Below are positions 2,874 through 62,338 of a stretch of 64,000 bases of DNA, piece after piece. Position numbers and translations under genes: made by a program. The notes beneath the pieces are model-generated. The model was not told where the DNA came from, ran no database searches, and saw only the letters and a program-made list of their open reading frames with translations. The DNA lies in NCBI GenBank assembly GCA_937920105.1, contig CALETH010000070.1:7483-71482 (forward strand), read 5' to 3'. How positions within the stretch are numbered: position 1 is the first letter of the stretch; each line of letters begins with the position of its first letter. This DNA comes from an uncultured Bacteroidota bacterium. GTDB lineage: Bacteria > Bacteroidota > Ignavibacteria > UBA10030 > UBA8401.

Positions 2874-5800
2874 ATGGAAAAAATTATATTATTTTTATCT
2901 GTTTTTTATTACACAATTTTATATTCGCAAAACATTCCTGATACATCACAAACTCATAGGATAATAAATTTATCAAACACTTCTAATGATGAAATTTCAG
3001 TTATCGTAGAATTTAAAGAAGAACCATTTTTCATTGCACAAAAAAAATCTACAGGATTATTGAAAACTGCTGCACAATATCAAAATCGTTTTCATCAATT
3101 CAAATCAGATATTTCCTCATTCCATCAACAAGCAAAAAACCAATTAGGAAAATCATTATCAACACCAATTATACAACGAGAATATTATCGTGTATTTTTT
3201 GGTGTAAGTATAAAAATTCCAAACACACTTCTTTCTAAAATTTATTCTTTACCATATGTTAAAACTGTTCATTTTGATGAAAAAGTAACTGCCTTTCTTG
3301 ATAAGAGTGTACATCGGATTGGAGCAGATTCTGTGTGGACTAAATTTAACACTCAAGGGGAAGGTGTAACGGTAGGAATTATTGATACAGGAATTGATTA
3401 TCTCCATCCAGATTTAGGTGGAGGTTTTGGTTCCACTTACAAAGTGATTGGTGGATATGATTTTGTAAATAATGATGCTGACCCAATGGATGATAATGGA
3501 CATGGAACTCACGTTGCAGGAATTGTTGCTGCCCAAGGTGATACAGTAACCGGTGTTGCCCCCAAAGTAAAATTAGTTGCCTATAAAGTGTTAGGTGCAG
3601 ATGGTAGTGGAACAACTAGTAACATCATTAGTGCAATAGAACGCACTATTGACCCAAATAATGATGGAGATATTAGTGATAAGTTAGATGTTGTCAATAT
3701 GAGTTTGGGTTCAAGTTATATAACAGCAAGTCCTGATGATGCTAAATCAATCGCTGTTGATAATGCAAGTTTTCTTGGTGTTACATTTTGTATTTCTGCA
3801 GGAAATTCTGGTTACTTTCCTCCAACACAAGGAAAAGAAACAAACTATTACTATACCGGATGGGAAACTATCAGCAGCCCTGGTAATGCACGCAGCGCCA
3901 TCACTGTTGGTGCGTTTGATACAACAACACAAAACACTAGTTTTGGAGTTACTAATATTGCATTATTTTCTTCACGAGGACCAAGCCGTGTAAATTATGC
4001 AATTAAACCAGAAATCGTTGCTCCAGGTGTTGGAACAAAATCTCTCAAAGCAGGCGGCGGATATTTACGTTTAAGTGGAACATCAATGGCATCACCACAC
4101 ATTGCCGGAGTTGCAGCACTCATTAAATCATTACATCCAAATTATACACCGGAACAAATAAAATCTGCTATTGTAAATTCCTCCGATGATTTAGGAGAAA
4201 ATCCGATGAGGCAAGGTTCTGGTGTGGTGAATGCATTAAAATCTTCTTCTACTTCAACACTTATTACACCAAGCGTACTCAATTACGGTCTTAACGGAAG
4301 TTCACAAACAACATGGGTAAAAGCAGAAACACTTACAGTAAAAAATACCTCTGCAAATTCACAAACATATTCAACGAGTTTTTACGATACTCCTGCCGGA
4401 ATTTCTCTTCTTTCTATACCACAAACATTTACCCTTGCTTCAGGTACTTCACAAAATATTATAATAGAGATTTCAGTCAACAATACCCAAATTTCCATTG
4501 TGAATGATGATATAATAATGCGTTGGGGAAATGTAAAGATAGAAGGAACACTTGATACACTTCGCTTACCGTGGGCGTTTGTTCGGACAAGTGTTAATAC
4601 TTTTGTTTTTGATTCACCAACTTCTTTCTTTTCTTTAACCGGAAGAAATACTAACGATGGGTATTTTCCTATGTTTGAGGGAAAGTTTGTTGGAAATGAT
4701 AAGCGTTCACGTTGGCTTTCCCCAACCACGTTAGAAATTATTGGTTTAACAAATGATACTTATGATATGCTTGCAGCATTTTCTTCGGATACCATAAAAA
4801 TAGTTGAAAAAAATAAATTACTAAATAATGGAACTGCAGATACAATCCATTCTATAAATGCAATTTATCAAGTACATTTTAATGGTGTTGATGAAAATGG
4901 AAATTTATTATCACAATCTCCAAACAATAGAAGAAGTATTGCTATTACACCACCATACTTAGGCCGCAACCCATTTTATATTGGTTCAAAACCCTTATTA
5001 CTTGCACCAACAACTGAACCATGGACTTTACATCCAGTGCAAACACAAACAGATATTGGTGGTACAAATAAAATCTATGTTACTCATCTCACTCCATTTA
5101 CGGGAATTATTAATAATGATATTACTGTAACCAATAATCCTGCTCAATACGTTAGTCAACATCTAAAATTTTTATATCCACAAAATACTTCACAAGCAAT
5201 TATTGTGGCAGAGCATGGTGAGTTGTGGGTTGACCCAAATAATCCGTTAGATAACTCCATTGTTATTTCATTTTATATTAATGCTGATACAGTAGCAATT
5301 ATTGGGAATCAATGGGAAGGGACACTCTATCTTTCTTCATACAGAACCCCGCAAGACCCTAATAATTATTTTTATTCTTTTGGAAGTTTGGTTAAAATCA
5401 GTACCGGATACGTAAATTTAGGATATAAAGACATAGAAAGTTTTTATATGAAAGCAGAAAATGATAGTATTCGTTATGAATATCTCCCAGAGTATGTTTC
5501 TCCTCATAATGGAACAATGATTTTTGGAGAAAACCCTATTTCCCTAAATGTTTCATCTATGAATAATCAATATGGACAATCATCAATTCATTTTGATGTT
5601 GATGTTTATGGACCATGGCGAGAAGGACGATATAATGATAAGAGAAAAGGTATATATACCATTTACAATGAAAATAATGAAAAAATAATTGAAGATTCTT
5701 TAAAAGTCAGTCGATACCCTAAAGAAGTACCTGCCGGTAAATATCGCCTTGAAATTTCTATGAACGATTATTTTATTTCAAACATTAAAGGAAAAGCAAC

Positions 5801-6746
5801 GATTAATAATTATTTTGATTTAGCATTGCAAGACCCACACTCACCATCTATTCGCTCATTACGAATTTTTAATTCGCAAAATAAACAATATTCTGGGCAT
5901 TTACTCAAAAATGAAAATGCAACATTAACATTTGCTTCTGTAGATACTAAACTTCTGCAAGATTCCGTAAAAGTGTATTATCGAAAATATAATTCAAATA
6001 ATGCATGGGTACCACTCAATACAACATTTATGGGAAATTCTCAATTTTCTACAGACCTTACTTCAACAACCAGTGCAGATTCCACCGCTATAAATTTGAA
6101 ATTTGTTTCTCAAGATTCTGTTGGCAATAAAACAGAATACGTTCTTGAACCGGCATTCGCCGTAGGAAATAATATTCCACTTCCTATACAATTATTTTCT
6201 TTTACCGCAACTACACAGAAAAATTCTGTAACATTACAATGGCAAACTATTTCTGAAGTAGATACATACGGATTTGCAATAGAACGAAAACAGTTATCTT
6301 CTTTACAATGGGAACAAGTTGGATTTGTTGAAGGAAAAGGAAATGCTTCTATTCCAGCAAATTATCAATTTAACGATAACATTCCACAAGGAATTCACTA
6401 CCAATATCGTTTAAAGATAGTTGATAAAGATGGAAGTTTTATCTATTCAAACATAGTAGATGTTGAAGTAGTTGTTCCACGTATCTTCTCACTCGCACAA
6501 AATTATCCTAATCCATTTAATCCATTAACAACAATTACATTTACCATACCCGAAGATGGAAATGTTAGAGTAAAATTGTATGATATTGTAGGAAGAGAAA
6601 TAAAAACATTTTTAAACGAAGAAAGAAAAGCCGGAATTCTTCACCAAATAGTTATTGATGCTTCATCACTTTCTACAGGAGTATATTTTTATCAATTAGA
6701 ACACAAAGGAAAAGCATTGATGAAGAAACTTATGGTGTTAAAATGA
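2874..6746 (+). CDS. Subtilisin-like S8 serine peptidase, multi-domain, with Fn3-like region and T9SS (Por) C-terminal sorting domain
   Basis: Catalytic triad motifs GIIDTGIDYLHPDL (Asp), HGTHVAG (His) and GTSMASPHIAG (Ser), plus a signal peptide. The C-terminus NYPNPFNPLTTITFTIPEDGNVRVKLYDIVGREI...GVYFYQL is a type-A T9SS C-terminal domain. Confidence 0.85.
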   Translation: MEKIILFLSVFYYTILYSQNIPDTSQTHRIINLSNTSNDEISVIVEFKEEPFFIAQKKSTGLLKTAAQYQNRFHQFKSDISSFHQQAKNQLGKSLSTPIIQREYYRVFFGVSIKIPNTLLSKIYSLPYVKTVHFDEKVTAFLDKSVHRIGADSVWTKFNTQGEGVTVGIIDTGIDYLHPDLGGGFGSTYKVIGGYDFVNNDADPMDDNGHGTHVAGIVAAQGDTVTGVAPKVKLVAYKVLGADGSGTTSNIISAIERTIDPNNDGDISDKLDVVNMSLGSSYITASPDDAKSIAVDNASFLGVTFCISAGNSGYFPPTQGKETNYYYTGWETISSPGNARSAITVGAFDTTTQNTSFGVTNIALFSSRGPSRVNYAIKPEIVAPGVGTKSLKAGGGYLRLSGTSMASPHIAGVAALIKSLHPNYTPEQIKSAIVNSSDDLGENPMRQGSGVVNALKSSSTSTLITPSVLNYGLNGSSQTTWVKAETLTVKNTSANSQTYSTSFYDTPAGISLLSIPQTFTLASGTSQNIIIEISVNNTQISIVNDDIIMRWGNVKIEGTLDTLRLPWAFVRTSVNTFVFDSPTSFFSLTGRNTNDGYFPMFEGKFVGNDKRSRWLSPTTLEIIGLTNDTYDMLAAFSSDTIKIVEKNKLLNNGTADTIHSINAIYQVHFNGVDENGNLLSQSPNNRRSIAITPPYLGRNPFYIGSKPLLLAPTTEPWTLHPVQTQTDIGGTNKIYVTHLTPFTGIINNDITVTNNPAQYVSQHLKFLYPQNTSQAIIVAEHGELWVDPNNPLDNSIVISFYINADTVAIIGNQWEGTLYLSSYRTPQDPNNYFYSFGSLVKISTGYVNLGYKDIESFYMKAENDSIRYEYLPEYVSPHNGTMIFGENPISLNVSSMNNQYGQSSIHFDVDVYGPWREGRYNDKRKGIYTIYNENNEKIIEDSLKVSRYPKEVPAGKYRLEISMNDYFISNIKGKATINNYFDLALQDPHSPSIRSLRIFNSQNKQYSGHLLKNENATLTFASVDTKLLQDSVKVYYRKYNSNNAWVPLNTTFMGNSQFSTDLTSTTSADSTAINLKFVSQDSVGNKTEYVLEPAFAVGNNIPLPIQLFSFTATTQKNSVTLQWQTISEVDTYGFAIERKQLSSLQWEQVGFVEGKGNASIPANYQFNDNIPQGIHYQYRLKIVDKDGSFIYSNIVDVEVVVPRIFSLAQNYPNPFNPLTTITFTIPEDGNVRVKLYDIVGREIKTFLNEERKAGILHQIVIDASSLSTGVYFYQLEHKGKALMKKLMVLK

Positions 6747-19596: not shown

Positions 19597-19670
19597 GTGC
19601 CTGTAGCTCAACTGGATAGAGCAACAGCCTTCTAAGCTGTAGGTTATTGGTTCGATTCCAATCAGGCACA
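19597..19670 (+). tRNA. tRNA-Arg (anticodon TCT)
   Basis: Cloverleaf fits: acceptor GTGCCTG/CAGGCAC, D-arm GCTC-AACTGGATA-GAGC, anticodon arm ACAGC-CTTCTAA-GCTGT, and T-arm ATTGG-TTCGATT-CCAAT. No encoded CCA. Confidence 0.85.
19629..19670 (+). repeat. attL core: 42-bp direct repeat (3' half of tRNA-Arg)
   Basis: cttctaagctgtaggttattggttcgattccaatcaggcaca is identical to 59570-59611. Confidence 0.8.
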
Positions 19671-19725
19671 CTGATTTTATTGATTGACTTTGTTGCTTCA
19701 GATTTATACTGCCAAAAAACTGCCA

Positions 19726-20766
19726 TTACTTTTTATTGATCTGCAATTTGTTTATTAGCTTCTTTTCTGTTTTTTGTAGTCGTTCTTGTACCATCTCCTG
19801 TGTAAACCCTAAATAATGTCTTCGTGAGACCTCCGAGGTGTGTCCTAGTAGTTTTTGGTTCGTAGCTTCAGGAATGCCGCTATCAGCGAGATAACTAGCA
19901 AACGTGCTTCTAAGACTATGCAAAGAAGCGTTTTTAATGTTAGCAAGACGAAACATTTCTGTAAAACTTTTACTGATGTTATCTCTACTACCAGAAAATG
20001 GTGTAACTTCATATTTTCTTCCTAGTAATAATTTTTTAATCTCTTCTCCCATTGGAACAATTCTTATTTTTTTTGTTTTTGTTTTGCGAAAGATAATTGT
20101 ATTTTTTTGAAAATCAATATCATCCCAGTTTAGATTTAAGGCTTCACTAAGTCTACAACCGGTTAACAAATAAAAAATAAATAAAGGTATAAGAGTTGAT
20201 TTATTTTGTTGAATAGTTTTATATAGTAATTCTATTTCTTTTATTGTGAGAACTCTTGGCAGTGGAAGTTCAATAGAAAGGCGTTTAATGTTGAGGAATG
20301 GATTTTCTTCAATATATTTCCATCTTAGGGCAGTGTTAAAAATAGCTTTTAGTCCACGTATGTACCAATTAACACCATTTGCTGTCATCGTAGGTGTAAT
20401 TTGAGTAATAAAAAAATCAGCTTTTGCTACAGTGATATCGTTGAGATATTCTGGGTGTAAAACGGTTTTTAATTTTTTTAAGATATATTTTTCGTTTGAT
20501 AATTGACCTTGACTTTTTCTTACCTTGACATAGTTTAAATATTCCTCGGCGAATTGTTCAAATACTATTTTTTTAGGTTTCTTTTTTATTCCAAAAATTC
20601 CTAATGAAATTTCGGCATCTACTTTTTTTTGAATAAGGCGAGCTTCAGCAGGTATTCTTCCTTTTTCAGGATTTATTTTAAGTGATTTTCTTTGACGTTT
20701 GCCAAATTGGTCAGTATAGTCTAAATATACTTTATTTGATTTTTTATCAATGTAGAGGCGAGACAT
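19726..20766 (-). CDS. Tyrosine-type phage integrase
   Basis: C-terminal catalytic region ...LHSLRSTFASYLADSGIPEATNQKLLGHTSEVSRRHYLGF shows the R...HxxR...Y pattern. It sits adjacent to tRNA/att. Confidence 0.85.
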   Translation of the reverse strand: MSRLYIDKKSNKVYLDYTDQFGKRQRKSLKINPEKGRIPAEARLIQKKVDAEISLGIFGIKKKPKKIVFEQFAEEYLNYVKVRKSQGQLSNEKYILKKLKTVLHPEYLNDITVAKADFFITQITPTMTANGVNWYIRGLKAIFNTALRWKYIEENPFLNIKRLSIELPLPRVLTIKEIELLYKTIQQNKSTLIPLFIFYLLTGCRLSEALNLNWDDIDFQKNTIIFRKTKTKKIRIVPMGEEIKKLLLGRKYEVTPFSGSRDNISKSFTEMFRLANIKNASLHSLRSTFASYLADSGIPEATNQKLLGHTSEVSRRHYLGFTQEMVQERLQKTEKKLINKLQINKK

Positions 20767-20803
20767 GTGTGTAAAAAGTTTTAGTAATCTTGATATAGAA
20801 TAA

Positions 20804-21418
20804 TTACTTTTTCTTTATGTAAACTTTTTTCCCTTTAGAATTATAATAATATTTTCCTCCCTTGGGACCAGTATAAATTGTTTTATCATTATAATTGTAT
20901 TGAGTGGATTTTACTTTTTTCTTTGATGTGATAGGTTTATTTTTTTTTGAGTGTCTGAACTCCCATGGAGGTGTAGGGTTTTTATCGGCCCATAAACCTA
21001 ATTTTTTAGTTTTTGCTTCTTCTTCAAGTTTTTGTAATTTTTCACTTTTTGAATATTGTTTATACTGCCAAGCTAATCCTGCTTTGACAAGTTCTTCATT
21101 TAGAATACTTTTGTCCGGTAATATCACTGTTCCAACAATTCTCCCATACCTATCTGTATTTGCTATTTTTACGGTTACACGTTTACCATAGCATAAGTCA
21201 GAAGTAAATTGTTTTGCTTTTGTTCCATAATCTTGTTTTTTTTCGGGGCAGTCAACTTCGTGGAGGCGAATAGTAATGGGTTCTTTATTGTCAGTAAGAA
21301 TTTCTATAGTATCTCCATCTTTTACACCGATAACTTTTCCTACAATAGTTTTTGCAGATAAAAGAAGGTTTGTAGAGAGAAGTAAAATCCAAAGGAAGAA
21401 TAGTTTTTTTCTTTTCAT
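20804..21418 (-). CDS. Secreted thermonuclease (SNase-fold) with lysine-rich C-terminal tail
   Basis: GDTIEI...RLHEVDCPE...YGRIVG...ELVKAGLAWQYKQY are SNase motifs. Signal peptide MKRKKLFFLWILLLS. The C-terminus PKGGKYYYNSKGKKVYIKKK is strongly basic. Confidence 0.7.
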   Translation of the reverse strand: MKRKKLFFLWILLLSTNLLLSAKTIVGKVIGVKDGDTIEILTDNKEPITIRLHEVDCPEKKQDYGTKAKQFTSDLCYGKRVTVKIANTDRYGRIVGTVILPDKSILNEELVKAGLAWQYKQYSKSEKLQKLEEEAKTKKLGLWADKNPTPPWEFRHSKKNKPITSKKKVKSTQYNYNDKTIYTGPKGGKYYYNSKGKKVYIKKK

Positions 21419-21837
21419 AAAGTTATTTTTTTCAATTCGTAATCTAATCGTATTTTTGCCAACCATGGAGAAACATTATAACGCTCTACCAATGTAGTAA
21501 TAGTATCATCTTCTATCACTGCTTCAATACGAACAAGGGAGGCAAAGAGACTAGCGTTTATTTCATCTCGTTTAATAAAAATTTCGTTTGGAGTATTACA
21601 ACTTTTGAAATGATGAAAAAGTTCATGCCAGCCCCAATCTCTTCGCTCTGCATAAGGAAGAGACTCATTTAAAACTATAAATTTATATAACCCAACTTTT
21701 GCATAAAAGCCGTTAATACCATCCCGGAGTTTTTCTTTTATACTAATTATTTCTTCGTCCGCACAAATTTTTTTATAGTTTAATTTTTTACCATACTTTT
21801 TTTGAAGTTCCTTAAGGAGAAGTTCTGCAGTTAACAT
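21415..21837 (-). CDS. ImmA/IrrE-family (DUF955-like) metallopeptidase-like protein
   Basis: HELFHH (HExxH) motif. It sits immediately downstream of, and overlapping, the HTH repressor genes. Confidence 0.5.
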   Translation of the reverse strand: MLTAELLLKELQKKYGKKLNYKKICADEEIISIKEKLRDGINGFYAKVGLYKFIVLNESLPYAERRDWGWHELFHHFKSCNTPNEIFIKRDEINASLFASLVRIEAVIEDDTITTLVERYNVSPWLAKIRLDYELKKITL

Positions 21838-22207
21838 TGTGTTGTAACAATTTTCTTAAAGTTATTTCTGCTTCCTCCATGTTAGCAGGGTTTATGTTGC
21901 GAAAAGCTTCTAATACTTTTCTTATAGCGGCAATATTAGTATTGTGATTGCTAGAAAAGTTAATTTGTATCGGTGAATCAGGGTCTTGTTTTTTTCCAGT
22001 AATGAGCCATTGAATATCACAGTCCTCTAAAGCAAGTGGTATCATTAAATCCACAGGATTAAATTCACCGGAAAAATATTTATTAACCCATTGTGGTTGA
22101 ATGTTCATTTTTTCTGCGAATTCTTTTTTTGTTTTATAACCTTTACTACAAAAAAATTCGTAGAGTCTCTTGCCTCGTTCACTGTATGGGTATTTTTTAT
22201 CATCCAT
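21812..22207 (-). CDS. XRE/CI-like HTH repressor (paralogue 1)
   Basis: HTH KKEFAEKMNIQPQWVNKYFSGE followed by a DIQWLITGK motif. The C-terminal region is similar to the neighbouring paralogue. Confidence 0.55.
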   Translation of the reverse strand: MDDKKYPYSERGKRLYEFFCSKGYKTKKEFAEKMNIQPQWVNKYFSGEFNPVDLMIPLALEDCDIQWLITGKKQDPDSPIQINFSSNHNTNIAAIRKVLEAFRNINPANMEEAEITLRKLLQHNVNCRTSP

Positions 22208-29761: not shown

Positions 29762-30088
29762 TTAGTTATGGTTTTTTTCAGAACTATCTTCCTCATCCTC
29801 ACCACGTTGAATAATTTCCCGCAACCATTCAAAATAACCCTTATCCATTCTAACGGCATGATGAGTAATTTCTTTATTCTTTTTTGCTAAATCCCTTGCA
29901 ATTTCCACCGCTTCCTTTGCTGTCATTTCTGCTTTAGTAAGAAGTGCTGCATTAAGCATAGATTGCATTTTGGTTTCTGTATAGTTACGCCAACCATTAT
30001 GAGAGATATAATCCAAAAAAGAAATAAGAAAAAACCATCCTATCAATAATACCACTGTTAAAAAAAACAGTATCATTAATTCAATCAT
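29762..30088 (-). CDS. Small single-pass membrane protein (cargo cassette)
   Basis: N-terminal TM helix. It overlaps the upstream gene by 8 nt. Confidence 0.4.
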   Translation of the reverse strand: MIELMILFFLTVVLLIGWFFLISFLDYISHNGWRNYTETKMQSMLNAALLTKAEMTAKEAVEIARDLAKKNKEITHHAVRMDKGYFEWLREIIQRGEDEEDSSEKNHN

Positions 30089-30827
30089 GAGTTAATATCT
30101 CTCCAATCTTTTTCTTTGCTGTCTTATTATATTTTTTAAATTGATACAAACCATAAATAATTGTAAGATTTTTGCAAATATTCACTACGGGATATAATAC
30201 TCGTAATAACGGAAGTGATTCTAAATATGTATGAATGATAATATTACAAAACGCTGCTAATGCAACGGCAACCACAATAAAAAAATACGGATTGTGAGTT
30301 GGAGGAACGCTACTATTGGTAATAAAATAGGAGAATGTAAAAAGTCCAGTGGTGATAAGAATAAAACATGATGTATTGTAAGAAATAGTACCCAAACCAT
30401 TAAATGGTTCTATTCCCGATATTTTGAGATATGACCAAAAAATAATAAACCCAGTTATTAACCCATAACAAAGATATTTTACGATAGAATGTTTGTATGT
30501 CCAAGAAGTAAAAGCATATACAAAAACTATAAAGGAGAGCAATGTGTAAATATGTTTCAATAATAATTCATTACCGCGAAAAATATTTTGTAGAAATATA
30601 CCTAATGACGTTTGATAGCCAATGTAATAATCTTGAAAAATAAGTACCGTAATGATATCAAATAATGGGCTAAAAATAGAAAGAGAAAATATTAATATTA
30701 ATGTTAAAGGTAATACATCTTCCCATTTAGATTTAACTTCCCTCCAAAAATTAAAAATATAAACATTGGCCGCTATTGAAATAAAAAGTGCCATAAAAGA
30801 ATGAAATATAGAAAATTTATCTACCAT
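30081..30827 (-). CDS. Polytopic membrane protein (cargo cassette; paralogue of 63220-63894)
   Basis: About 7 TM segments. SGIEPFNGLGTIS...VPPTHNPYFF aligns with VGLENFHAMDLMS...IPPIKPDPLYQ of the host copy. Confidence 0.5.
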   Translation of the reverse strand: MVDKFSIFHSFMALFISIAANVYIFNFWREVKSKWEDVLPLTLILIFSLSIFSPLFDIITVLIFQDYYIGYQTSLGIFLQNIFRGNELLLKHIYTLLSFIVFVYAFTSWTYKHSIVKYLCYGLITGFIIFWSYLKISGIEPFNGLGTISYNTSCFILITTGLFTFSYFITNSSVPPTHNPYFFIVVAVALAAFCNIIIHTYLESLPLLRVLYPVVNICKNLTIIYGLYQFKKYNKTAKKKIGEILTHD

Positions 30828-30871
30828 AGAATAATCCTTTCAGAAATGTAGAGAACTAATATTTATAGTTA

Positions 30872-31627
30872 TTATTTAGGTGGTGGTAGAAATATATCAT
30901 CCTCTTTAAAATTTGTTTCTTTAGGTGGTAGCAATATGTTATCATTTGCTCCAATGCCGGATTTAAATAAAGGAGCAGAACTATTAACATTTACCAATAC
31001 AAACGTAAATGCGTTTTTAGTAGTTCCACAATATAATCGAATACCAGCTACGTTTGGATTTGCTAACAACCGTTCAATACTTTCTCGCGAAGACCACTTT
31101 TGTGAAACTCCATTAACATTTACGCTTCCGTTCTGTGTAAGTTGTAACCCTGTAGCATAACTAATTTCTTGCCCTTCATTTACCGCAGTACTTTTTATTA
31201 TTTCTCCATACATATTTAAAGGATAGAGTACTGTAGTAAATCTCCCAACATCATTTATTGCTAAACACATTGCAACGCCTCGTACTTCTTTAGAAAAGAA
31301 AATTTTAGACCACATTGCACGTGGTACATATGTATTAGTTACACCTCTTACATTTTGTGTATAGTAAGAAGTTTTTTCCTGTGCTTCTTTATTTGTTAAT
31401 GGTCTTCCACCACCATTCACCCAATCTAAATTTTCTCTTCGTGGAAATAATCGTGTTGTTCTTAAATACGAATCTTGTGTTTCTGTTTGGATGGTTTGTT
31501 GTTGGGGCAGAAAATTTTCTGCCCGTACGGATTGTTGTGTATCTTGTGGTGAGGTGGGACTTTCATTATTACATCCGATGAGAATGTATGAAAGAAATAC
31601 AAATGAGATAATGATATAATTTTTCAT
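30872..31627 (-). CDS. Lipoprotein (cargo cassette; paralogue of 62525-63190)
   Basis: Lipobox LIGC. GCNNESPTSPQDTQQSVRAENFLPQQ aligns with GCNNEAPTSPQEPQQNVRAENFPPQQ of the host copy. Similarity runs to the C-terminus (LPPPK/MPPPSK). Confidence 0.55.
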   Translation of the reverse strand: MKNYIIISFVFLSYILIGCNNESPTSPQDTQQSVRAENFLPQQQTIQTETQDSYLRTTRLFPRRENLDWVNGGGRPLTNKEAQEKTSYYTQNVRGVTNTYVPRAMWSKIFFSKEVRGVAMCLAINDVGRFTTVLYPLNMYGEIIKSTAVNEGQEISYATGLQLTQNGSVNVNGVSQKWSSRESIERLLANPNVAGIRLYCGTTKNAFTFVLVNVNSSAPLFKSGIGANDNILLPPKETNFKEDDIFLPPPK

Positions 31628-31651
31628 AAGATTTTATTATAAGTTAATAAA

Positions 31652-32020
31652 TTAGTTTTTGGGTGCTATTTTCTTCTGTTGTTTTCTTTCTTTAAAGAAA
31701 GTATAAAAAATGTAGATGAACATTACATCTGTATAGAAACTTAATACCGTACCGGCTATTCCTGTTCCTAAAAATGTTATTTCGTTTTCGTTGGTTGTAG
31801 GAATAATATACATTGTCCACAAACGACCGAAGGACCATACGGCTATTGTTCCGGCAATGACATAAGCAAAATAAGGAACGTGTGAGTTTTTTTGTTTTTG
31901 TATTTTCTCAAACCTTTTACGATTAATAACAATAAGTGAAGCAGCAATGCAATATAAAATAACTACTGCAGTCTTTAACATTATTTGTTGGTTTTCAAAA
32001 ATAGAATTTAAAAATCCCAT
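31652..32020 (-). CDS. Small membrane protein
   Basis: 3-4 predicted TM helices. Confidence 0.4.
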   Translation of the reverse strand: MGFLNSIFENQQIMLKTAVVILYCIAASLIVINRKRFEKIQKQKNSHVPYFAYVIAGTIAVWSFGRLWTMYIIPTTNENEITFLGTGIAGTVLSFYTDVMFIYIFYTFFKERKQQKKIAPKN

Positions 32021-32106
32021 AACACAAAATTAGTTTTTAACACAATTTTACTTTTACAGCAGTATAATACTATTTCAAAATTTGGCTATATGTAGCCACT
32101 CCTTAC

Positions 32107-32150
32107 AAAAAACACGAAAGCGGAGAAGGTATTTCACTTCGTCCGCTTTC
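32107..32150 (-). terminator. Rho-independent terminator (minus strand) after the T9SS cargo gene
   Basis: Stem gaaagcgga/tccgctttc with a T-run on the minus strand (plus-strand aaaaaaca). Confidence 0.5.
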
Positions 32151-32277
32151 AGTAACTTCCATATTTTGTATGGAAACACTTTGTAGGTTTCTATAGAAAA
32201 TTATGCTATGCAATGGTGTGTAATATTATATGTTGGTTACATTATATAATTTAATTTTAAGAATGTCAAGAGATTAT

Positions 32278-32904
32278 TTATTTCACCAGCATCATCCGTT
32301 TTCTAAATACCTCAGTTTTGCCTGTTTCATTTTTGTAGCGACACTCATAAATATACATTCCGCTGGACACACTACTTGCATTCCATTGTTGTTGATGGTA
32401 ACCTGCTGTTTGTTCTTGCTCTACTAATTTGGAAATTTCTTGTCCCAATGTGTTGTAAATTACTAACTGCACAAATCCATTGGTTGGTAATTGATAGGTA
32501 ATTGTTGTTATGGGATTGAATGGGTTGGGATAGTTTTGTTGTAACTCAAATTTTTCTGGTGCTAATATTGTATAAGCAATTTCTTTTTTCCATTCTTCTC
32601 CATTAGTAGATTGTACAACTATGGTAAATTTTTGTTCTGTATTGACTGGTGCTGTTTTTTCTATTGCAAAGTTGAGTGTGATAGTTTTTTCTTCTTGGCT
32701 ATTCAAGGATATTTCTTGTACTGAATTATTTTTTATAGTTATTCCTTGTGGGAGGTTTTCTACTTTTACGGAGAGTGTTGTAGTAATAACTCCAGTATTG
32801 GCAATGGTAAATTCTACAGAATTATTTTTTGATGCAAAGGGTATTTTTGCTGTTTCTGCTTTGGCAATGTTGAGCAAGAAGAGGATGATGATGAGTTTTT
32901 TCAT
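32278..32904 (-). CDS. Small secreted protein with T9SS C-terminal sorting domain (prophage cargo)
   Basis: Signal peptide. C-terminus NYPNPFNPITTITYQLPTNGFVQLVIYNTLGQEI...GMYIYECR is the T9SS CTD signature. Confidence 0.7.
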   Translation of the reverse strand: MKKLIIILFLLNIAKAETAKIPFASKNNSVEFTIANTGVITTTLSVKVENLPQGITIKNNSVQEISLNSQEEKTITLNFAIEKTAPVNTEQKFTIVVQSTNGEEWKKEIAYTILAPEKFELQQNYPNPFNPITTITYQLPTNGFVQLVIYNTLGQEISKLVEQEQTAGYHQQQWNASSVSSGMYIYECRYKNETGKTEVFRKRMMLVK

Positions 32905-32958
32905 AAAAGTTTTTAGTTATTAGTGTATAATTTTTTGTTATTTCTACAAAAGAGTCAT

Positions 32959-32990
32959 AGTCATTCCCGCACGTTGTAAGGGGGAATTCA
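32959..32990. repeat. REP-like palindromic element copy 3 (inside the prophage cargo island)
   Basis: AGTCATTCCCGCACGTTGTAAGGGGGAATTCA shares its termini with the host copies. Confidence 0.5.
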
Positions 32991-33077
32991 GTTTAAAATA
33001 TTTAGAACGCTGATTTCTTAAGATTATTACTGATTATTTTCTTATTCTATTTTTCTTACTTCTTCTACCTTCTTATT

Positions 33078-34418
33078 TTATTTCTTCAATCTTTCCAAAA
33101 TATATTTAGAATTATCCGTTAAAAAATCATATCCATCTTTGGTAACAAAACGTGGTGTGTTAAGTTTGAGATATTCTTTTTCTAATTTGCTGTTGTATTT
33201 TTCCAACTCGGTGATACATTTGTTTTTATTGTTTTGCAAATAATGATTTTTTGCATTGCTGATGGTAAGAGTTAGTTCGTTGACAAAGTTTGCATTACCA
33301 ATCCAGTTGAGTGTAGCAGATTGTTTAGTAAAAGATGCTAATGTATCTAACGTGGCGGGAATAGACAAAGAATCTAAATGCTCATTAATATTTTCTTGAT
33401 AATGGTCTCTTAATTCATAATAAAGATGAGTATAGTAAGACCCACCCTGTGGAAGTTGGGCTAATAATTTTTGTAATTCATATTTAACTACTGGTGTAAT
33501 AAGGTCTTGCATACGCCATATTACATTATATGCTAATGAAGTATCGGTAATTGGCGGAGTGATTAAAGCCATACATGCGGGAATAACGGATACATCATTA
33601 TAATATTCTATAAGATGCCAAATTGCTTCATACCGTACTTTTGTTGATGTATCAGTAAAAGCGAACTGTTTGAACAATGTATAGGTTTCTGAAAAATCTT
33701 TAAAATTAATTAATACACCGACAGCATGAGCACGGTATTCTACATTAGGAACGGTTAATAATTCTTTATATCGTGTATAGACTTGTGAACGTAAAGGAAG
33801 ATTTCTTCCAAACCATGCTAAATAATTTTGATTTATTTGTGTATATGGAAGCGAGGAATAATAATTGTAATACGAATAATCTTGATGATGAAGCACTACA
33901 CACAATGCTTTTTCAAATGCATCATCTATCCATTTTATATAGTAAGGGGCGGGACGTGGATTTTGCCTTCTTGTTATTATCGTATCCAATAATGCTTTTG
34001 CCATTGGATATGCATCAGGGTCACCAAGCTGGTCTAATGCAAGAAGATAATCACCCATTAAATAAGTATGTTTTACATTTCCTTGTAATGATTCATAATA
34101 TCGTTGTTTCATAGCGGGGATAATATCTGTTTTTCCACGAGCTGCTAACATAATATATGCTCCGTGGCTTTTTTCATAAAAACGGTTTCTCCTTATTTGT
34201 TGTGTGTTTTCATCATAATTTTGGTAGTTTGTGGTATCAATTAATAATGAATATAATTGTGCCTCTGTTACTGTTTTTTCTTCTCTTGGAGTGTTAAAAA
34301 CTCGTAAAAGCCAAAGCATTTTTATCCCTGCCTCTTCGGAAAAACAGGGATTGTTCTGTGCAATAGTTATTGATGTTATAGATAATATTATCGTACATAA
34401 AAAAATGTATCGTTTCAT
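33078..34418 (-). CDS. Hypothetical secreted protein (446 aa)
   Basis: Signal peptide and no recognisable catalytic motif. Largely helical, Tyr-rich composition. Confidence 0.45.
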   Translation of the reverse strand: MKRYIFLCTIILSITSITIAQNNPCFSEEAGIKMLWLLRVFNTPREEKTVTEAQLYSLLIDTTNYQNYDENTQQIRRNRFYEKSHGAYIMLAARGKTDIIPAMKQRYYESLQGNVKHTYLMGDYLLALDQLGDPDAYPMAKALLDTIITRRQNPRPAPYYIKWIDDAFEKALCVVLHHQDYSYYNYYSSLPYTQINQNYLAWFGRNLPLRSQVYTRYKELLTVPNVEYRAHAVGVLINFKDFSETYTLFKQFAFTDTSTKVRYEAIWHLIEYYNDVSVIPACMALITPPITDTSLAYNVIWRMQDLITPVVKYELQKLLAQLPQGGSYYTHLYYELRDHYQENINEHLDSLSIPATLDTLASFTKQSATLNWIGNANFVNELTLTISNAKNHYLQNNKNKCITELEKYNSKLEKEYLKLNTPRFVTKDGYDFLTDNSKYILERLKK

Positions 34419-34436
34419 AAATGTTCTCCGTAAATA

Positions 34437-36383
34437 TTATAAGTTAAATTTTGTTTTGATTGCTTTCACTAAATTCTCAAGATATTTTTTTTCTTTTTCA
34501 TGGGCTATAATTTCATTGGCATTCCAAAGTTTTGTATCAGTATCAAATGGACCAATTTTTCCTCGTAAAGTCATATCCACATCTCTTTCTTTATCTTTAA
34601 GTTGTTGTTGAGTGATGTTTTGTGCAAGCGTTGTCGGCATACAAGGGTTAGTAATTTGTAGTTCTGTTTTTACTGTATCTATAATTCTTGCTATACCGGC
34701 TTTATATTCCGTTGCGTGAGTGAGTTCATGCAATGCAATCCCTTCTAAAGAAACATAATTGTTCATCGGGATGGATTTTTCTGCATCAGTTAGTTTTTTT
34801 GCTGGGTCAAACTCATTGGCTTTTTGATATCTTTTAATCACTTTTTCAATATCTTTCATTTGTTTTTCGTACTCTTTTACAACAGCAATGGCCATGTTTT
34901 TATCGGTAACTTGGTTCACGTTATCCACCTTTGTTTTACCAGAATTAGCACAAATAAAAACTCCAATATTTGCATAGACATCTGCTATTTCGTATTTCAC
35001 ACAATTTCTTTGTTGGTCTAAACATAATACTAATTGCAGCATGTTTTGGGTTTCGTCCGGCAGTTGCAATCGCGTATATCCGCCTTCATCACAATTAGCA
35101 CCCATAACGTAATTTTCTGTTATAGAAAATTGAGACGGATTGTTGCATGGCTCAAATTTTTCACCATCTACTTTAAAAAGTGCTTGTGCAATTTTCTTTA
35201 ACCAATTCGCTGTTAAAATAACTGTTGGTGTAGAAGTTACATTACTATTTGCTGCACTCGAACCCACCAATCCTTTTAATCCATCCAACCCGCCGTTTTT
35301 TGCTGTTGTTGTTGGTGGTGGTGGTGGTGCATTTGTCGGCTGACCTATCACTTTTACTTTTCCTGCTAATACTTCATCTAAAGTTGCGGTGGTATAATTT
35401 ATTCCTGCTAATTCTGGTTTATCTAAAGAAAAATTTATGATACTATTTCCAGGTAAGGTAGAAGTAATATCGGTACTATCACTTCTGTATCCTTTTACAC
35501 TCACAATGGCACTATCTCCATAATTAATACTATCTGGGGTAACAAATACTTTGATGTGGTGTAAATCATTTGCACGAATGAGTATTAACTTTCCAGTTGT
35601 ATCACTGGCACTTCCGGCAATATTGGTGGCTGTTACTTGTACCGGTGTTCGTAATGTATCTCCGGGTTTTATTTGGTTAAGATAGTTTTGTGTATTAAAT
35701 GTTTGTTGCGGCGACCATGTTGTTGTTGGTGCGTATTTTCCTGCTGGTGTAGTTGAACAGGTATAACTTGCTATAGGAAATGTTGTTGTTTGACTGCTGA
35801 TAGTATATTGTTTTATTTTTGTTCCGGTGATACTTACCGTTGGTTTTGGTATTGGTCTGTAACGGATAGTTCCGTGAAGTTCATAGGGTCCACTTCCATT
35901 GGGATAATTGATACTTCTATAGACATTAGTGGTAATAAGGTCTCCTTGTGTTGGTGGAACTACTGGTTGATACTGAATAGAGGTTGTATTGTATGGTGGT
36001 GATATGCCGTAATTATATTCTGGTCCGTTATAGTTTTTTACTTCTGCAGTAGTACTTAATGGGACTGGTCCGATAGTAGGACTTCGCACCATCCATACAG
36101 TTTTACCAGGAAATCTTGCATTGAGTGCAATGGTATCTACTTGTCCGGTAGAAAGTTCTAATCGTGTAAGTCCTCCCATTCCAGGCCATGGTGTATAGGG
36201 ATAATAATAGAGATGGTAATAATAATAAATATCTACCCATGTTGTAGTTTGGTCTGGTGTACTTGTTGCTTGCAATGGTATTTTGAGTTTTGGTTGTATC
36301 TCTAATCGTTCTTTAATGATGACTTGGGAATAAAGTGAGAAGGAAGAAAGAAGTAGTATGAAAAGCGTAGCGAATTTTTTCAT
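34437..36383 (-). CDS. Large secreted protein with C-terminal HEXXH (putative zinc-metallopeptidase-like) domain
   Basis: Signal peptide, a beta-rich N-terminal half, a PPPPP linker and a C-terminal LEGIALHELTHATEYKAG HExxH motif. Confidence 0.5.
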   Translation of the reverse strand: MKKFATLFILLLSSFSLYSQVIIKERLEIQPKLKIPLQATSTPDQTTTWVDIYYYYHLYYYPYTPWPGMGGLTRLELSTGQVDTIALNARFPGKTVWMVRSPTIGPVPLSTTAEVKNYNGPEYNYGISPPYNTTSIQYQPVVPPTQGDLITTNVYRSINYPNGSGPYELHGTIRYRPIPKPTVSITGTKIKQYTISSQTTTFPIASYTCSTTPAGKYAPTTTWSPQQTFNTQNYLNQIKPGDTLRTPVQVTATNIAGSASDTTGKLILIRANDLHHIKVFVTPDSINYGDSAIVSVKGYRSDSTDITSTLPGNSIINFSLDKPELAGINYTTATLDEVLAGKVKVIGQPTNAPPPPPTTTAKNGGLDGLKGLVGSSAANSNVTSTPTVILTANWLKKIAQALFKVDGEKFEPCNNPSQFSITENYVMGANCDEGGYTRLQLPDETQNMLQLVLCLDQQRNCVKYEIADVYANIGVFICANSGKTKVDNVNQVTDKNMAIAVVKEYEKQMKDIEKVIKRYQKANEFDPAKKLTDAEKSIPMNNYVSLEGIALHELTHATEYKAGIARIIDTVKTELQITNPCMPTTLAQNITQQQLKDKERDVDMTLRGKIGPFDTDTKLWNANEIIAHEKEKKYLENLVKAIKTKFNL

Positions 36384-36475
36384 AAAAATTTTGATTAAGT
36401 TAAAGATGTATAATTATATAACCTTGTTTTTATTAAAACAATTAATAAAAAATTTCAAATAGTATAACCCTTATA

Positions 36476-36503: not shown

Positions 36504-36552
36504 AGGTCTGTGGAGAGTGAATCTCCGTAATGCGTTCTCCGTGTTTTATTTA

Positions 36553-36588
36553 AGCCCGTTGCTGGTCCCAGCGGTAACGGGCTTTTTT
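36553..36588 (+). terminator. Strong intrinsic terminator immediately upstream of the packaging operon (tR'-like)
   Basis: agcccgtt...aacgggct stem with an inner gctgg/ccagc, then TTTTTT. Confidence 0.6.
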
Positions 36589-36610: not shown

Positions 36611-37219
36611 ATGAACATCACCGATAGAATTCTCAAAACAGAAAAAATTGCATGGCGTGAATTGGAATGGTTCATTATTGAAAAGAATGTTGAAGTAAAA
36701 GAAATATTGCAATCCAATTTTGATAAACTGAAAAAAAGTTTGTTAGAAAATTCTGTTATTCAAACGTTCGCTGTGTGGGAGCATGACGGCAAGATAGTAA
36801 TTTTGGATGGAAGGGAAAAACAAAAAGCACTTCAAGAATTAGAGAATGAAGGACACACTATTCCGGATATACTTTCTGCAAATTTTATTGAATGCAAAAA
36901 TACTGCAGAAGCCGCAAAAGTAGTATTACTGTATTCTTCCATTTATGCAAAACTTACGGAAGAAGGTTTATCCTATTTGATTGCTCTTACACAAACTGAC
37001 CTTAATAAATTAATAAAAGAAATAGAACTACCATCATTCAATTTGAGCAAGTTTGTAGAAAAACAATTGACTGAAGAAAACGGAATTTCTCCGTTAAAAG
37101 AATTCAATTACACTCCGCAGTATGGAGTGATTGTTTTGTGTGAAGATGAAGAAAAACAAAAAATCATTTACGAAAAATTAAGCGGGCAAGGATATTCTTG
37201 CCGAGTTGTTGTTACATGA
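36611..37219 (+). CDS. Putative ParB/Srx-like nuclease-domain protein
   Basis: ATG at 36611. Only a loose ParB-N pattern (...VILDGREKQKAL...). Its stop overlaps the next start (ATGA). Confidence 0.3.
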   Translation: MNITDRILKTEKIAWRELEWFIIEKNVEVKEILQSNFDKLKKSLLENSVIQTFAVWEHDGKIVILDGREKQKALQELENEGHTIPDILSANFIECKNTAEAAKVVLLYSSIYAKLTEEGLSYLIALTQTDLNKLIKEIELPSFNLSKFVEKQLTEENGISPLKEFNYTPQYGVIVLCEDEEKQKIIYEKLSGQGYSCRVVVT

Positions 37220-38355
37220 AAATAGATATTCACCATCAATGTAGTGATTTCCAAAGTTACAGAGCCGCACGAGTAAAAAGTTTATTCAACGCGGAGAAGG
37301 GATGTGATTTTCTTTTTTCGTGTGAACTGAATATAGATGACCCGAATTGGAAACTTGGTGTCATTGTCGGTCCAAGTGGAAGCGGAAAAAGTTCTCTCGG
37401 TAAAAAAATTTTTGGTGAAGAGTTTCTCTACAATATGGAAAATGATTGGAATGTTGATAGTCCGATTATAGACTGTATTGCTCCCACTGGAGATTTTAAC
37501 GAAGTAACCGGAGCGTTAGCAAGTGTAGGTTTAGGAGATGTCCCAGCATGGTTACGTCCGTTTCATGTTCTTTCTAACGGACAAAAATTTCGTGCAGGGC
37601 TTGCACGATTGATAGTTGAAAAACCGGAACAAGTCGTTGTTGATGAATTTACCAGTGTGGTTGATAGACAAATTGCAAAGATAGGAGCGCAAGCATTTGC
37701 CAAAGCATGGAAACGCGGAAAAGGTCAATGTGTGTTGTTATCCTGCCACTATGATATCCTTGATTGGTTAGAACCGGATTGGGTATTTGACACGGCAAGC
37801 GGAAAGTTTGCAAGGGGGAATCTTTGGCGAAGGCCACAATTTGAACTTCAAATTTGGAAGACAAACTCCAGTTACTGGAAATATTTTAAACCGCATTACT
37901 ATTTGAATTTACCAATGCCAATTGCGGCAGAATATTTTGTTGGAACTGTAGAAAATGAACTTGTATGTCATCTTGCTGTTACACCGTTTTTTACAGCGAA
38001 ATCGTACAGAGCAACACGATTAGTAGTAATGCCGGAATGGCAAGGTGCTGGTGTAGGAACAAAATTTTTGGATTGGGTATGTGAGTATCATTTACAAGGA
38101 GACGGAAGATGTGGTAAAAAATTTCCTGTGAGATTTCATACTTCACATCCTCAACTTTGTAATGCACTACGAAAAAATTCAAAGTGGAATCAACTTGGAG
38201 CAGTGCTGTATGGAGGCAACAAAAAAAAATCTATTCAAACTATCGGTAAGTCTTCGCTACGAAGAAGTAAAAAAATAGGAACTGGTTTTGGTGGACATTT
38301 TAGGGCAGTGCAAAGTTTTATGTATATCGGAAACAAAAATAAATTCACACAATGA
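37216..38355 (+). CDS. ABC-type ATPase domain fused to GNAT-fold acyltransferase domain
   Basis: Walker A GPSGSGKS, ABC signature LSNGQKFRAGLARL, Walker B VVVDEF and H-loop LLSCH. A C-terminal GNAT motif A is present (RLVVMPEWQGAGVGTKFL). Confidence 0.6.
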   Translation: MKIDIHHQCSDFQSYRAARVKSLFNAEKGCDFLFSCELNIDDPNWKLGVIVGPSGSGKSSLGKKIFGEEFLYNMENDWNVDSPIIDCIAPTGDFNEVTGALASVGLGDVPAWLRPFHVLSNGQKFRAGLARLIVEKPEQVVVDEFTSVVDRQIAKIGAQAFAKAWKRGKGQCVLLSCHYDILDWLEPDWVFDTASGKFARGNLWRRPQFELQIWKTNSSYWKYFKPHYYLNLPMPIAAEYFVGTVENELVCHLAVTPFFTAKSYRATRLVVMPEWQGAGVGTKFLDWVCEYHLQGDGRCGKKFPVRFHTSHPQLCNALRKNSKWNQLGAVLYGGNKKKSIQTIGKSSLRRSKKIGTGFGGHFRAVQSFMYIGNKNKFTQ

Positions 38356-58535: not shown

Positions 58536-58991
58536 ATGATACTTTCTGAACATTTTACTTTGAAAGAAATGATTCGCTCTGCAAAAGCAAGTGAGTTAAA
58601 AATAAATAATACACCATCACAAAAAGAAATTGATAATTTAAAACTTTTATGTGAAGAAGTGCTTGAGCCACTAAGAAAATTAATTGGTAAACCAATACAT
58701 GTTACTAGTGGTTATCGTTGTAGAGAATTAAATAATGTGGTTCCCTTTGCCTCAAAAAATAGCGACCATATCGATGGAAACGCTGCAGATATTTTTGTAA
58801 ATGGTATGACAGTAGAAGAAGTTTTTAGTGTGATTTGTGTACAATCTGTTTTTTCCTACGGTCAAGTTATTTGTGAACGACTTCTGGGAAAAAATTGGGT
58901 ACACATTTCTCGGGTTACGAAAAAACATAAAATGGAAAAATGGCTTGCAAATAAAATTGTTAATAAGAAGGTAGTGTATGAAAAATATTGA
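58536..58991 (+). CDS. Endolysin, peptidase M15 family (zinc D,D-/L,D-peptidase)
   Basis: SDHIDGNAADI and HVTSGYR motifs. Confidence 0.7.
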   Translation: MILSEHFTLKEMIRSAKASELKINNTPSQKEIDNLKLLCEEVLEPLRKLIGKPIHVTSGYRCRELNNVVPFASKNSDHIDGNAADIFVNGMTVEEVFSVICVQSVFSYGQVICERLLGKNWVHISRVTKKHKMEKWLANKIVNKKVVYEKY

Positions 58992-59461: not shown

Positions 59462-59569
59462 GCTTTTACTGCCAAAATCCTGCCAAACATGGGACTATTT
59501 GAGACTATGTAGGACAAGGCAAACGCTGAAATCGTGCTAAAATGAGGGAATTATACAATGTGCAGCATT

Positions 59570-59611
59570 CTTCTAAGCTGTAGGTTATTGGTTCGATTCC
59601 AATCAGGCACA
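59570..59611 (+). repeat. attR core (42-bp copy of the tRNA-Arg 3' half)
   Basis: Identical to 19629-19670. Upstream sequence diverges from the tRNA 5' part. Confidence 0.8.
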
Positions 59612-59620
59612 CAGAAATTT

Positions 59621-60220
59621 TTACTTTCCCGAAACCTTCAGCACTCTTTTTATCAAATCTTCAATCGCAATATCTTTTCCGTTCAATTCATTTAATACAA
59701 TTCTTATAGATTGTTCTGCTTTTTCCCGTGTGTAACCTAAAGAAAGAAGTGCAAGTAATGCTTCTGAACGAATATTGTTTTTTGTTGTAGGAGATACATT
59801 CGTAAAAGTAGTTTCCATTTTTGCAAACTTATCTTTTAACTCCACCACCAAACGTTCAGCAGTTTTTTTTCCAACTCCGGGGATTGCTGTAATTGCAGAA
59901 CTATTTCCATCTAAAATATATTGTTGTAAATCCTTTGGTTGAATTCCGGAAAGAATTGTTTGTGCACTTTTCGGTCCAATCCCGGAAACAGAAATCAACA
60001 AACGAAAAATTTCTCGTTCATCTTCTGTGAGAAATCCATATAATACTTGTGCATCTTCGCGGATGTGATGATGAATAAAAAGTTTTACACTCGTTTGCAA
60101 CGCTCCAAGTTTTTCATAAGTAGAAAGAGGGATGTGAACAGAATATCCAACACCGTGAACATCAACAATAATTTCTGTAGCAGTTTTGTGAGAAAGATTT
60201 CCGGTAAGTTGAGCAATCAT
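59621..60220 (-). CDS. ruvA: Holliday-junction helicase subunit RuvA
   Basis: MIAQLTGNL...VDVHGVGYSVHIP... with two HhH motifs (GIGPKSA, GVGKKTA). True start ATG at 60220. Confidence 0.8.
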   Translation of the reverse strand: MIAQLTGNLSHKTATEIIVDVHGVGYSVHIPLSTYEKLGALQTSVKLFIHHHIREDAQVLYGFLTEDEREIFRLLISVSGIGPKSAQTILSGIQPKDLQQYILDGNSSAITAIPGVGKKTAERLVVELKDKFAKMETTFTNVSPTTKNNIRSEALLALLSLGYTREKAEQSIRIVLNELNGKDIAIEDLIKRVLKVSGK

Positions 60221-62278: not shown

Positions 62279-62298
62279 AGGTATGATTTTTTAGAGTT

Positions 62299-62324
62299 GT
62301 CATTCTTGCAAATGCAGGAATTCA
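62299..62324. repeat. Degenerate REP-like element copy 4
   Basis: GTCATTCTTGCAAATGCAGGAATTCA shares its termini with copies 1-3. Confidence 0.35.
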
Positions 62325-62338
62325 TTTTAATACAATTG

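Follow-up and report, generated by a model that had tools for sequence, protein, structure and literature searches.

Diverged paralogues of a rare three-gene envelope operon in a prophage and in the adjoining chromosome of an uncultured Bacteroidota bacterium

The window analysed here, a stretch of 64,000 nucleotides from contig CALETH010000070.1 of an uncultured Bacteroidota bacterium, contains two versions of one gene cassette, in which a lipoprotein gene is followed by a gene for a seven-transmembrane (7-TM) protein and a gene for a small transmembrane (TM) protein. One version lies within a prophage and the other in the chromosome next to it, and sequence comparison shows the two cassettes to be anciently diverged paralogues of one rare, predicted three-gene envelope operon. 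As the best explanation of the prophage version we tentatively propose lysogenic conversion, in which the prophage cassette would replace or join host envelope subunits and thereby exclude related phages or alter a property of the cell surface.

Two diverged copies of one cassette

The open reading frames (ORFs) that a first-pass annotation of the window had assigned to both cassettes were recovered at the positions it gave:
30872-31627, minus strand: prophage cassette gene 1, a lipoprotein of 251 amino acids (aa) with lipobox LIGC, a Q/P/T-rich linker, two tandem ~75-aa alpha/beta domains and a PPPK tail
30081-30827, minus strand: prophage cassette gene 2, a 7-TM integral membrane protein of 248 aa (BLASTP, AlphaFold2 (AF2) model)
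29762-30088, minus strand: prophage cassette gene 3, a 108-aa bitopic protein with an N-terminal TM helix and a charged helical tail (ORF list, hydropathy)
62525-63190, plus strand: host cassette gene 1, a lipoprotein of 221 aa with lipobox FLGC (ORF list, BLASTP)
63220-63894, plus strand: host cassette gene 2, a 7-TM protein of 224 aa with the C-terminus NFEIHDWL (ORF list, BLASTP, hidden Markov model (HMM) profile)
63916-64000 (start at 63898 or 63916), plus strand: host cassette gene 3, an 85-91-aa bitopic protein of which only the start lies in the window

In BLASTP the prophage and host lipoproteins aligned through the mature protein, with 37% identity over 197 aa (E 8e-36). This similarity is not confined to the signal region, since the globular parts alone, taken from the DW motif onwards without signal peptide and linker, still shared 34.7% identity over 147 aa (E 6e-25). 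The relationship of the 7-TM proteins was likewise borne out: they are 27% identical over 185 aa (E 5e-7), and a single HMM profile retrieves both of them. For comparison, the prophage 7-TM protein matched its orthologue on contig L001 at E 6e-31. With respect to the annotation that both cassettes end with a small hydrophobic protein, position and architecture held up, whereas homology in sequence could not be demonstrated, the prophage protein (108 aa) and the host-type protein (82-91 aa) giving a BLASTP E of 2.2. Apart from its position, the pair has the N-terminal TM helix, the charged helical tail and a W-x-R-x-I motif in common. The full host gene 3 was read on the near-identical contig L002, an orthologue is present on L003, and both in the prophage copy and in L001 the start of gene 3 overlaps the stop of the 7-TM gene.

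The gene order lipoprotein, 7-TM protein, small TM protein was kept wherever the context is visible (contigs L001-L004), in agreement with the earlier description of one module in two diverged copies, prophage-borne and chromosomal. Because the flanking genes differ among these contexts, the conserved unit is the two- or three-gene cassette. With identities of only 37% and 27%, and with closer relatives of each copy elsewhere, the copies are evidently old paralogues and not the outcome of a recent duplication. Of the gene exchange between phage and host that had been suggested, an exchange within the lipoprotein gene is supported (see below).

The cassette family is very rare, with about 7 lipoproteins and 6 7-TM proteins in a total of 15 billion. 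An exhaustive HMMER search with the lipoprotein through 1.84 billion cluster representatives (E<1e-3) returned 21 proteins, only six of which are close full-length relatives; of 5.8 billion proteins searched with the 7-TM profile, six matched. A word-indexed protein search with the lipoprotein recovered itself and a single relative of 75% identity. Nearly all family members stem from a single ENA assembly (ERZ650243) and from Logan runs. A pattern scan for lipoprotein relatives found none in GTDB genomes, IMG/VR and JGI metagenomes, tblastn against INPHARED phages gave no cassette match, and the cassette was absent from 80 IMG/VR loci that carry the phrog_11143 gene neighbouring it in this prophage. 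It was also absent from all loci collected via RuvA for a synteny comparison, among which the best RuvA was 47% identical (Ignavibacteriae metagenome-assembled genome). Pfam, PHROGs, NCBIfam and PADLOC contained no match for the cassette proteins (for PADLOC, zero for all nine proteins tested).

Pairwise identities resolve several lineages. Within the host-type group the lipoproteins are 46-52% and the 7-TM proteins 54-67% identical, the latter with the C-terminus NFE[IL]HDWL; nearest to the host lipoprotein are P0003 and P0004 (51-52%), and the relatives of the host 7-TM protein are P0026-28 (54-67%). The prophage lineage is separate from this group, with P0002 being 75% identical to the prophage lipoprotein, and L001 and L155 represent further lineages. 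One relative, P0008, available as a protein only, consists of a cassette-type lipoprotein over its first ~93 residues joined to unrelated sequence (GIDPGLRTGCK...), and probably derives from a chimeric contig or from a gene truncated by rearrangement.

As expected of bacterial lipoproteins (Lol/Lgt substrates; lipobox pattern [LVI][ASTVI][GAS]C), the translations of both genes show a signal peptide that ends in a lipobox (LIG-C in the prophage, FLG-C in the host copy), and G/S-C is kept in the relatives. A disordered Q/P/T-rich tether of 45-60 residues lies between the lipid anchor and the two tandem ~75-aa domains of a new type, which were modelled by AF2 in the same H-E-H-E-E order with a pLDDT of 85-94 and which align with each other in hhalign (probability 99.9%, E 9e-33). 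The lipoprotein has neither a Pfam model nor a sequence relative in PDB, and a profile search with the single domain gave no matches. Its distant relatives are secreted two-domain proteins in which each repeat closes with CPPxC; the cassette lipoproteins retain only the terminal PPP. Furthermore, the domain occurs in 25 copies in a protein of 3570 aa and in 7 copies in a protein of 2387 aa that also carries cohesin, PKD-like and type IX secretion system (T9SS) sorting domains. Because of its presence in such giant secreted or T9SS-sorted proteins it is an extracytoplasmic module. For one distant two-domain homologue with CPPWC, P0010 (L156 68-3870), the gene is followed by one for a 209-aa polytopic membrane protein and then by one for a PAS-HisKA-REC kinase. 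Its polytopic neighbour aligns with the 7-TM family at an hhalign probability of 56% (E 1e-4), a weak match from a single case, and hints that the lipoprotein/7-TM pairing may be older than the cassette.

The AF2 model of the 7-TM protein comprises seven long helices (pLDDT 64) and no extramembrane domain. Among the invariant polar residues of the family are D57, K135, E140 and a C-terminal H-D, and a conserved loop motif, K-[IV]-x-G-[IL]-E-[PN]-F, is predicted on the periplasmic side. The Lys/Arg-rich C-terminal tail suggests the predicted N-out/C-in topology. Pfam matched none of the six family members and NCBIfam gave no match either; profiles of 7TMR-DISM, rhodopsins and other known 7-TM families were negative, no sequence match was present in PDB, and the fold search returned generic seven-helix (receptor/rhodopsin) bundles at E>0.1.

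A signal-transduction front end was also considered, in which the lipoprotein would bind an extracytoplasmic ligand, the 7-TM protein would serve as receptor and the cytoplasmic tail of the bitopic protein would relay to a kinase. In that case an envelope signal would be sensed or rewired by the phage version. A hybrid histidine kinase gene a few genes upstream in L001, the kinase that follows P0010 and its 7-TM-like neighbour, and the likeness of the 7-TM model to generic receptor/rhodopsin bundles only are all compatible with such a role. However, these are two contexts only, the L001 kinase is three unrelated genes away, no kinase lies near either window copy, and no receptor family including 7TMR-DISM was matched, the fold matches themselves being non-significant. 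We consider a signalling function improbable.

Prophage and chromosomal surroundings

The assignment of one cassette to a prophage and of the other to the chromosome proved right. The 40-kb prophage is bounded by a 61-nt direct repeat (19621-19681 and 59562-59622), which contains the 3' part of a tRNA-Arg gene and whose exact 23-nt att core occurs twice in the window, and host genes for RuvA and HIT follow beyond attR. In addition to the features outlined below, the prophage encodes a replication initiator, a Holliday-junction resolvase, a ParB-methyltransferase, TerL, a portal, a major head protein and a tail fibre.
19597-19681, plus strand: tRNA-Arg(TCT) gene with attL (direct repeat 19621-19681; ARAGORN, Rfam tRNA, 61-nt repeat)
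19726-20766, minus strand: prophage tyrosine integrase (phrog_1, E 2e-54)
31652-32020, minus strand: small polytopic membrane protein of 122 aa, first gene behind the promoter, with no host counterpart (ORF list, hydropathy, no family matches)
32241-32269, minus strand: perfect match to the sigma-70 consensus promoter, TTGACA-17-TATAAT (12/12), preceding the four genes of the unit 32020->29762
32278-32904, minus strand: 208-aa protein with a T9SS C-terminal sorting domain (Por_Secre_tail, E 2e-9)
33078-34418, minus strand: secreted HEAT-like protein of 446 aa (signal-peptide-like N-terminus)
34437-36383, minus strand: secreted protein of 648 aa (signal-peptide-like N-terminus)
58536-58991: endolysin
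59562-59622, plus strand: attR, a copy of the 3' part of tRNA-Arg (direct repeat)
62452-62479, plus strand: promoter-like site TTGACT-16-TATAAT (11/12) upstream of the host cassette (consensus scan)

The prophage cassette forms the distal part of a 6.6-kb cargo block (29762-36383) of seven genes. Situated between the resolvase and the late region, the block separates the replication module from the packaging module, and all phage genes that flank it lie on the other strand. All seven products carry a signal peptide, a lipobox, a TM segment or a T9SS sorting domain and are thus predicted envelope proteins (ORF list, hydropathy, Pfam/NCBIfam). For the 208-, 446- and 648-aa proteins neither PHROG nor PADLOC gave a match. 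From the base composition, ~0.02 chance promoter matches of 12/12 are expected in the 7-kb stretch; taken together, promoter-like sites are no more numerous in this region than in shuffled sequence. Downstream of 29762 no terminator-like site was found on the minus strand. Both cassettes lie in GC dips (0.30 versus 0.33-0.36).

By its predicted genes and signals, the prophage cassette has the layout of a lysogenic-conversion 'moron', a kind of prophage cargo with general precedent (PMC3594210). It shares with morons the independent-looking cargo unit between phage modules on the opposite strand, the lower GC and the envelope proteins, and a putative promoter of its own is present as a consensus match. 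It differs from them in that no terminator was detected after the cassette, the seven-gene block is unusually large, and two of the genes have a diverged host paralogue 2.9 kb beyond attR.

Some further observations were made on the block. The 208-aa T9SS protein resembles the C-terminal part of a host S8 subtilase (6348-6743, plus strand) with 33% identity over 137 aa (E 1e-21); the part in question is an immunoglobulin-like plus sorting domain, so that a segment related to the host is found in a second gene of the prophage cargo. In the gap that separates the block from the first gene of the late region, a strong hairpin (36552-36584; 13-bp stem, T-run) is neighboured by divergent promoter-like sites and by an AT-rich palindrome of 44 nt (36373-36454). 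The lowest-GC 2-kb bins of the window are 30001-32000 (0.301) and 62001-64000 (0.299), alongside the bin at the integrase end, 20001-22000 (0.301).

Phage lysis machinery with spanin-like parts, built from an outer-membrane lipoprotein, a bitopic coiled-coil and a holin-like membrane protein, was considered as well, and superficially the 108-aa protein and the proline-ended lipoprotein do resemble i- and o-spanins. This reading was rejected, and its probability is negligible, because the endolysin gene is 27 kb away at the other end of the prophage and the host paralogue resides among core genes. Moreover, the cassette is antisense to the late genes, the lipoprotein comprises 251 aa with two folded domains, and PHROG gave no lysis match. 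O-spanins are far smaller, and holins with seven helices are not known.

The host cassette begins 2.9 kb past attR, with the RuvA and HIT genes in between. Its neighbours are RuvA, HIT and a tetratricopeptide repeat (TPR) protein on one side and genes with DUF3467 and DUF5723 on the other; terminator-like hairpins after the TPR gene precede the promoter-like site of the cassette. The host copy is an ordinary chromosomal unit in a core-looking chromosome. Its position so close to the attR of a prophage carrying its paralogue has a chance of ~0.2% per copy for a 3-Mb genome. An older island at the same tRNA was considered as the cause and discarded, since neither the window nor the following 5 kb (L002) contains a third att copy.

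This setting bears on the main competing explanation, plain host-benefit cargo. Here, the prophage cassette would do the same cellular job as the host module, e.g. envelope sensing or transport, and would add a second specificity or dosage, with no phage-phage competition being involved. The location of the host copy among core genes (RuvA, HIT, TPR protein, DUF3467) is in line with it, as are the several diverged versions within one community, the lack of a defence-library match and the absence of the cassette from other phages. However, it leaves unexplained why a 37%-diverged version should be kept by a phage behind a strong-consensus promoter of its own, in the company of four further secreted or membrane proteins. 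On present data it is otherwise not distinguishable from lysogenic conversion, and we judge it a serious possibility, if an unlikely one.

The linker palindrome and the 5' tract of the lipoprotein genes

The stretch VRAENF(L/P)PQQ, which the first-pass annotation had cited as evidence at the protein level, cannot be used in this way, since it is encoded by a DNA palindrome that was found in both genes:
31505-31524: perfect 20-nt palindrome GGGCAGAAAATTTTCTGCCC in the linker of the prophage lipoprotein, encoding RAENFLP, a diverged GTAG-type repetitive extragenic palindrome (REP)
62625-62644: palindrome GGGCAGAAAATTTTCCGCCC with one mismatch at the same codon position of the host lipoprotein gene, encoding RAENFPP

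In the L001 orthologue (3811-3830) the element reads GGGCGAAAAATTTTTCGCCC; both inner positions are altered on both arms and the palindrome is still perfect, with the peptide being RAKNFSP instead of RAENFLP. Only two copies are present in the 64-kb window (0.04 expected), and ~1 Mb of unrelated control loci contained none. As RNA, the prophage palindrome forms a hairpin of -13.9 kcal/mol (z -5.3), and all three versions, from prophage, host and L001, fold as hairpins. Rfam reported only tRNA over the window and no match at the palindrome. The host-type relatives P0003, P0004 and P0008 are devoid of the VRAENF(L/P)PQQ motif, which indicates that it was inserted into the linker and does not belong to a conserved protein core. 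As a practical caution, a short 'protein motif' of striking conservation in a low-complexity linker may be the footprint of a palindromic DNA repeat and not a functional peptide.

Similar elements are found well beyond the cassette. A JGI metagenome scan for GGGCnnAAAATTTTnnGCCCCAACA gave 89 loci, and in 89 of 94 matches the inner dinucleotides were complementary, in nine types, where chance would give 1/16. In an unconstrained scan of viral contigs 29 loci were found, corresponding to 24 distinct contexts after deduplication; the inner dinucleotides were complementary in 20 of these, and the flanks of the loci follow the consensus GTAG...CTAC. Judged by its sequence, the palindrome is a diverged form of the known class of GTAG-tagged REPs, for which we use 'REP-like' in the case of the window genes. 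The 20-nt core GGGCnnAAAATTTTnnGCCC fits the family consensus GTAG-GGGCnnAAAATTTTnnGCCC-CTAC, and like the family it is a short GC-rich palindrome. Unlike typical members, the window copies lack the GTAG end, their heads being degenerate (GTAC in the prophage and GTAA in the host copy, ...CAAC). In addition, the 64 kb contain two copies only, which occupy equivalent codons in paralogous genes, whereas multi-copy contigs occur elsewhere. Because of this small number and the equivalent position in paralogues, the window palindromes were presumably inherited or converted and not freshly inserted.

Intragenic in-frame copies of GTAG-tagged REPs in flexible protein linkers are known (Di Nocera et al. 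2013, PMC3733652). In our scans, in-frame palindromes turned up in genes for Nuo51-like proteins, HsdS and glycogen synthase as well as in T9SS protein tails, and 25 of 38 long ORFs used the frame V[GR]AxNFxP. One palindrome-bearing ORF, on L112, was considered as a REP-associated tyrosine transposase on account of an HUH-like 'PNHIHGII' seen by eye; it has no Pfam match and is not called as such. On two contigs, GTAG-type palindromes of the same sequence recur with a period of 245-246 nt (L079 at 180/425/670, L114 at 2020/2265/2511), which points to a longer, palindrome-bearing unit repeated in tandem.

The palindrome also marks a boundary of similarity between the two lipoprotein genes. From the codon of the lipobox Cys to the 3' end of the palindrome, a 77-nt tract at the 5' end is identical at 65 of 77 positions (84%), compared to 52.5% in the remaining lipoprotein gene (permutation of the tract contrast, p<5e-5). 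Furthermore, a 'TVEKTEQ' segment is absent from both window copies and present in P0002, the closest relative of the prophage copy, as well as in the host relatives P0003 and P0008. The simplest explanation of this pattern would be gene conversion between a phage-type and a host-type gene, with a tract ending at the palindrome. Alternatively, strong selection on the first mature residues and on the hairpin could be the source of the tract.

Possible function of the prophage cassette

Two prophage-encoded systems served as points of comparison. P-FimU is a prophage paralogue of a host type IV pilus subunit, which replaces the host subunit and blocks phages (PMC12952977). As in that case, a component of the host cell envelope has a diverged counterpart in the prophage; the difference is that three proteins are concerned here, not one, and that their incorporation and a role in defence are putative. 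In the light of such precedents, the exclusion or receptor masking put forward in the first-pass annotation is a reasonable conjecture. The superinfection-exclusion lipoprotein Ltp of Streptococcus phages consists of a lipid anchor, a spacer and a tandem repeat domain (PMC3952083). The cassette lipoprotein, likewise prophage-encoded, resembles it in that a low-complexity spacer links a lipid anchor to a tandem repeat domain outside the cytoplasmic membrane. Ltp acts alone, with neither a 7-TM partner nor a host paralogue, whereas the cassette lipoprotein has both. Proteins of the Ltp type block the injection of DNA by binding the tape-measure protein. The ltp gene is part of the lysogeny module, and the genome position of the cassette appears to be different. 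Prophage envelope cargo with a host paralogue is of a known kind; new are the two orphan families and the occurrence in an uncultured, T9SS-bearing bacterium.

Under lysogenic conversion, the three products would form one envelope complex, the prophage cassette would be expressed in the lysogen, and the phage-type proteins would replace or join the host-type subunits. The altered complex would then change what is exposed or let through, whereby related phages would be excluded or a surface property would be changed, and recombination would have exchanged the 77-nt 5' tract of the lipoprotein gene between the copies. This proposal is supported by the homology of both protein pairs, the conserved gene order, the prophage borders and modules and the all-envelope cargo, furthermore by the 12/12 promoter match directly upstream, the GC dips and the extracytoplasmic domain, and finally by the Ltp-like architecture, the P-FimU precedent, the mosaic 5' tract and the shared indel state.

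Several results speak against lysogenic conversion. Physical interaction of the three products is deduced from operon structure only, and the promoter upstream of the cassette is a consensus match only. The cassette has no PADLOC or PHROG match, and the lipoprotein fold gave no Foldseek match in PDB or BFVD better than E 0.027. With Ltp it has no sequence or fold similarity, its domains being alpha/beta and not helix-turn-helix-like, and the 7-TM model is of low confidence. In addition, the 7-TM protein nearest to that of the prophage is encoded on L001, where the cassette lies next to a host histidine kinase and no phage gene is visible. Finally, as none of the other phages and viral contigs covered bears the cassette, phages do not make recurrent use of it.

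A further reading is immunity to a membrane-active toxin or bacteriocin, with lipoprotein and membrane protein acting as a pair that host and phage would both carry. In lantibiotic immunity of the LanI type, a lipoprotein plus a polytopic membrane protein serves as comparison. Only the architecture agrees, i.e. a two-domain lipoprotein with a small integral membrane partner in several diverged alleles within one community. No toxin, ABC transporter or bacteriocin gene was nearby in the contexts seen and no family was matched, and we regard an immunity pair as very unlikely.

In a bolder version of lysogenic conversion, the three genes would encode an undescribed envelope complex made of two orphan families, which is disarmed or re-specified when prophage subunits replace those of the host, thus blocking superinfection by related phages. 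Recombination at the REP palindrome would then allow the exposed 5' part of the lipoprotein gene to be exchanged between phage and host. This is speculative, and we would be surprised if all of it held. Should host subunits indeed be replaced by their prophage versions, P-FimU would be joined by a second, independent case of defence through replacement of a host surface component. In any event, the host allele and the phage allele in one genome offer a clean natural pair for testing the function of the lipoprotein/7-TM module.

As a minor observation on the same prophage, the protein encoded at 37198-38355 (plus strand) matches phrog_11143 with E 1e-145. Its 231 relatives, with identities of 55-70%, are found on IMG/VR contigs that are otherwise unlike this prophage, which points to a highly mobile phage gene.

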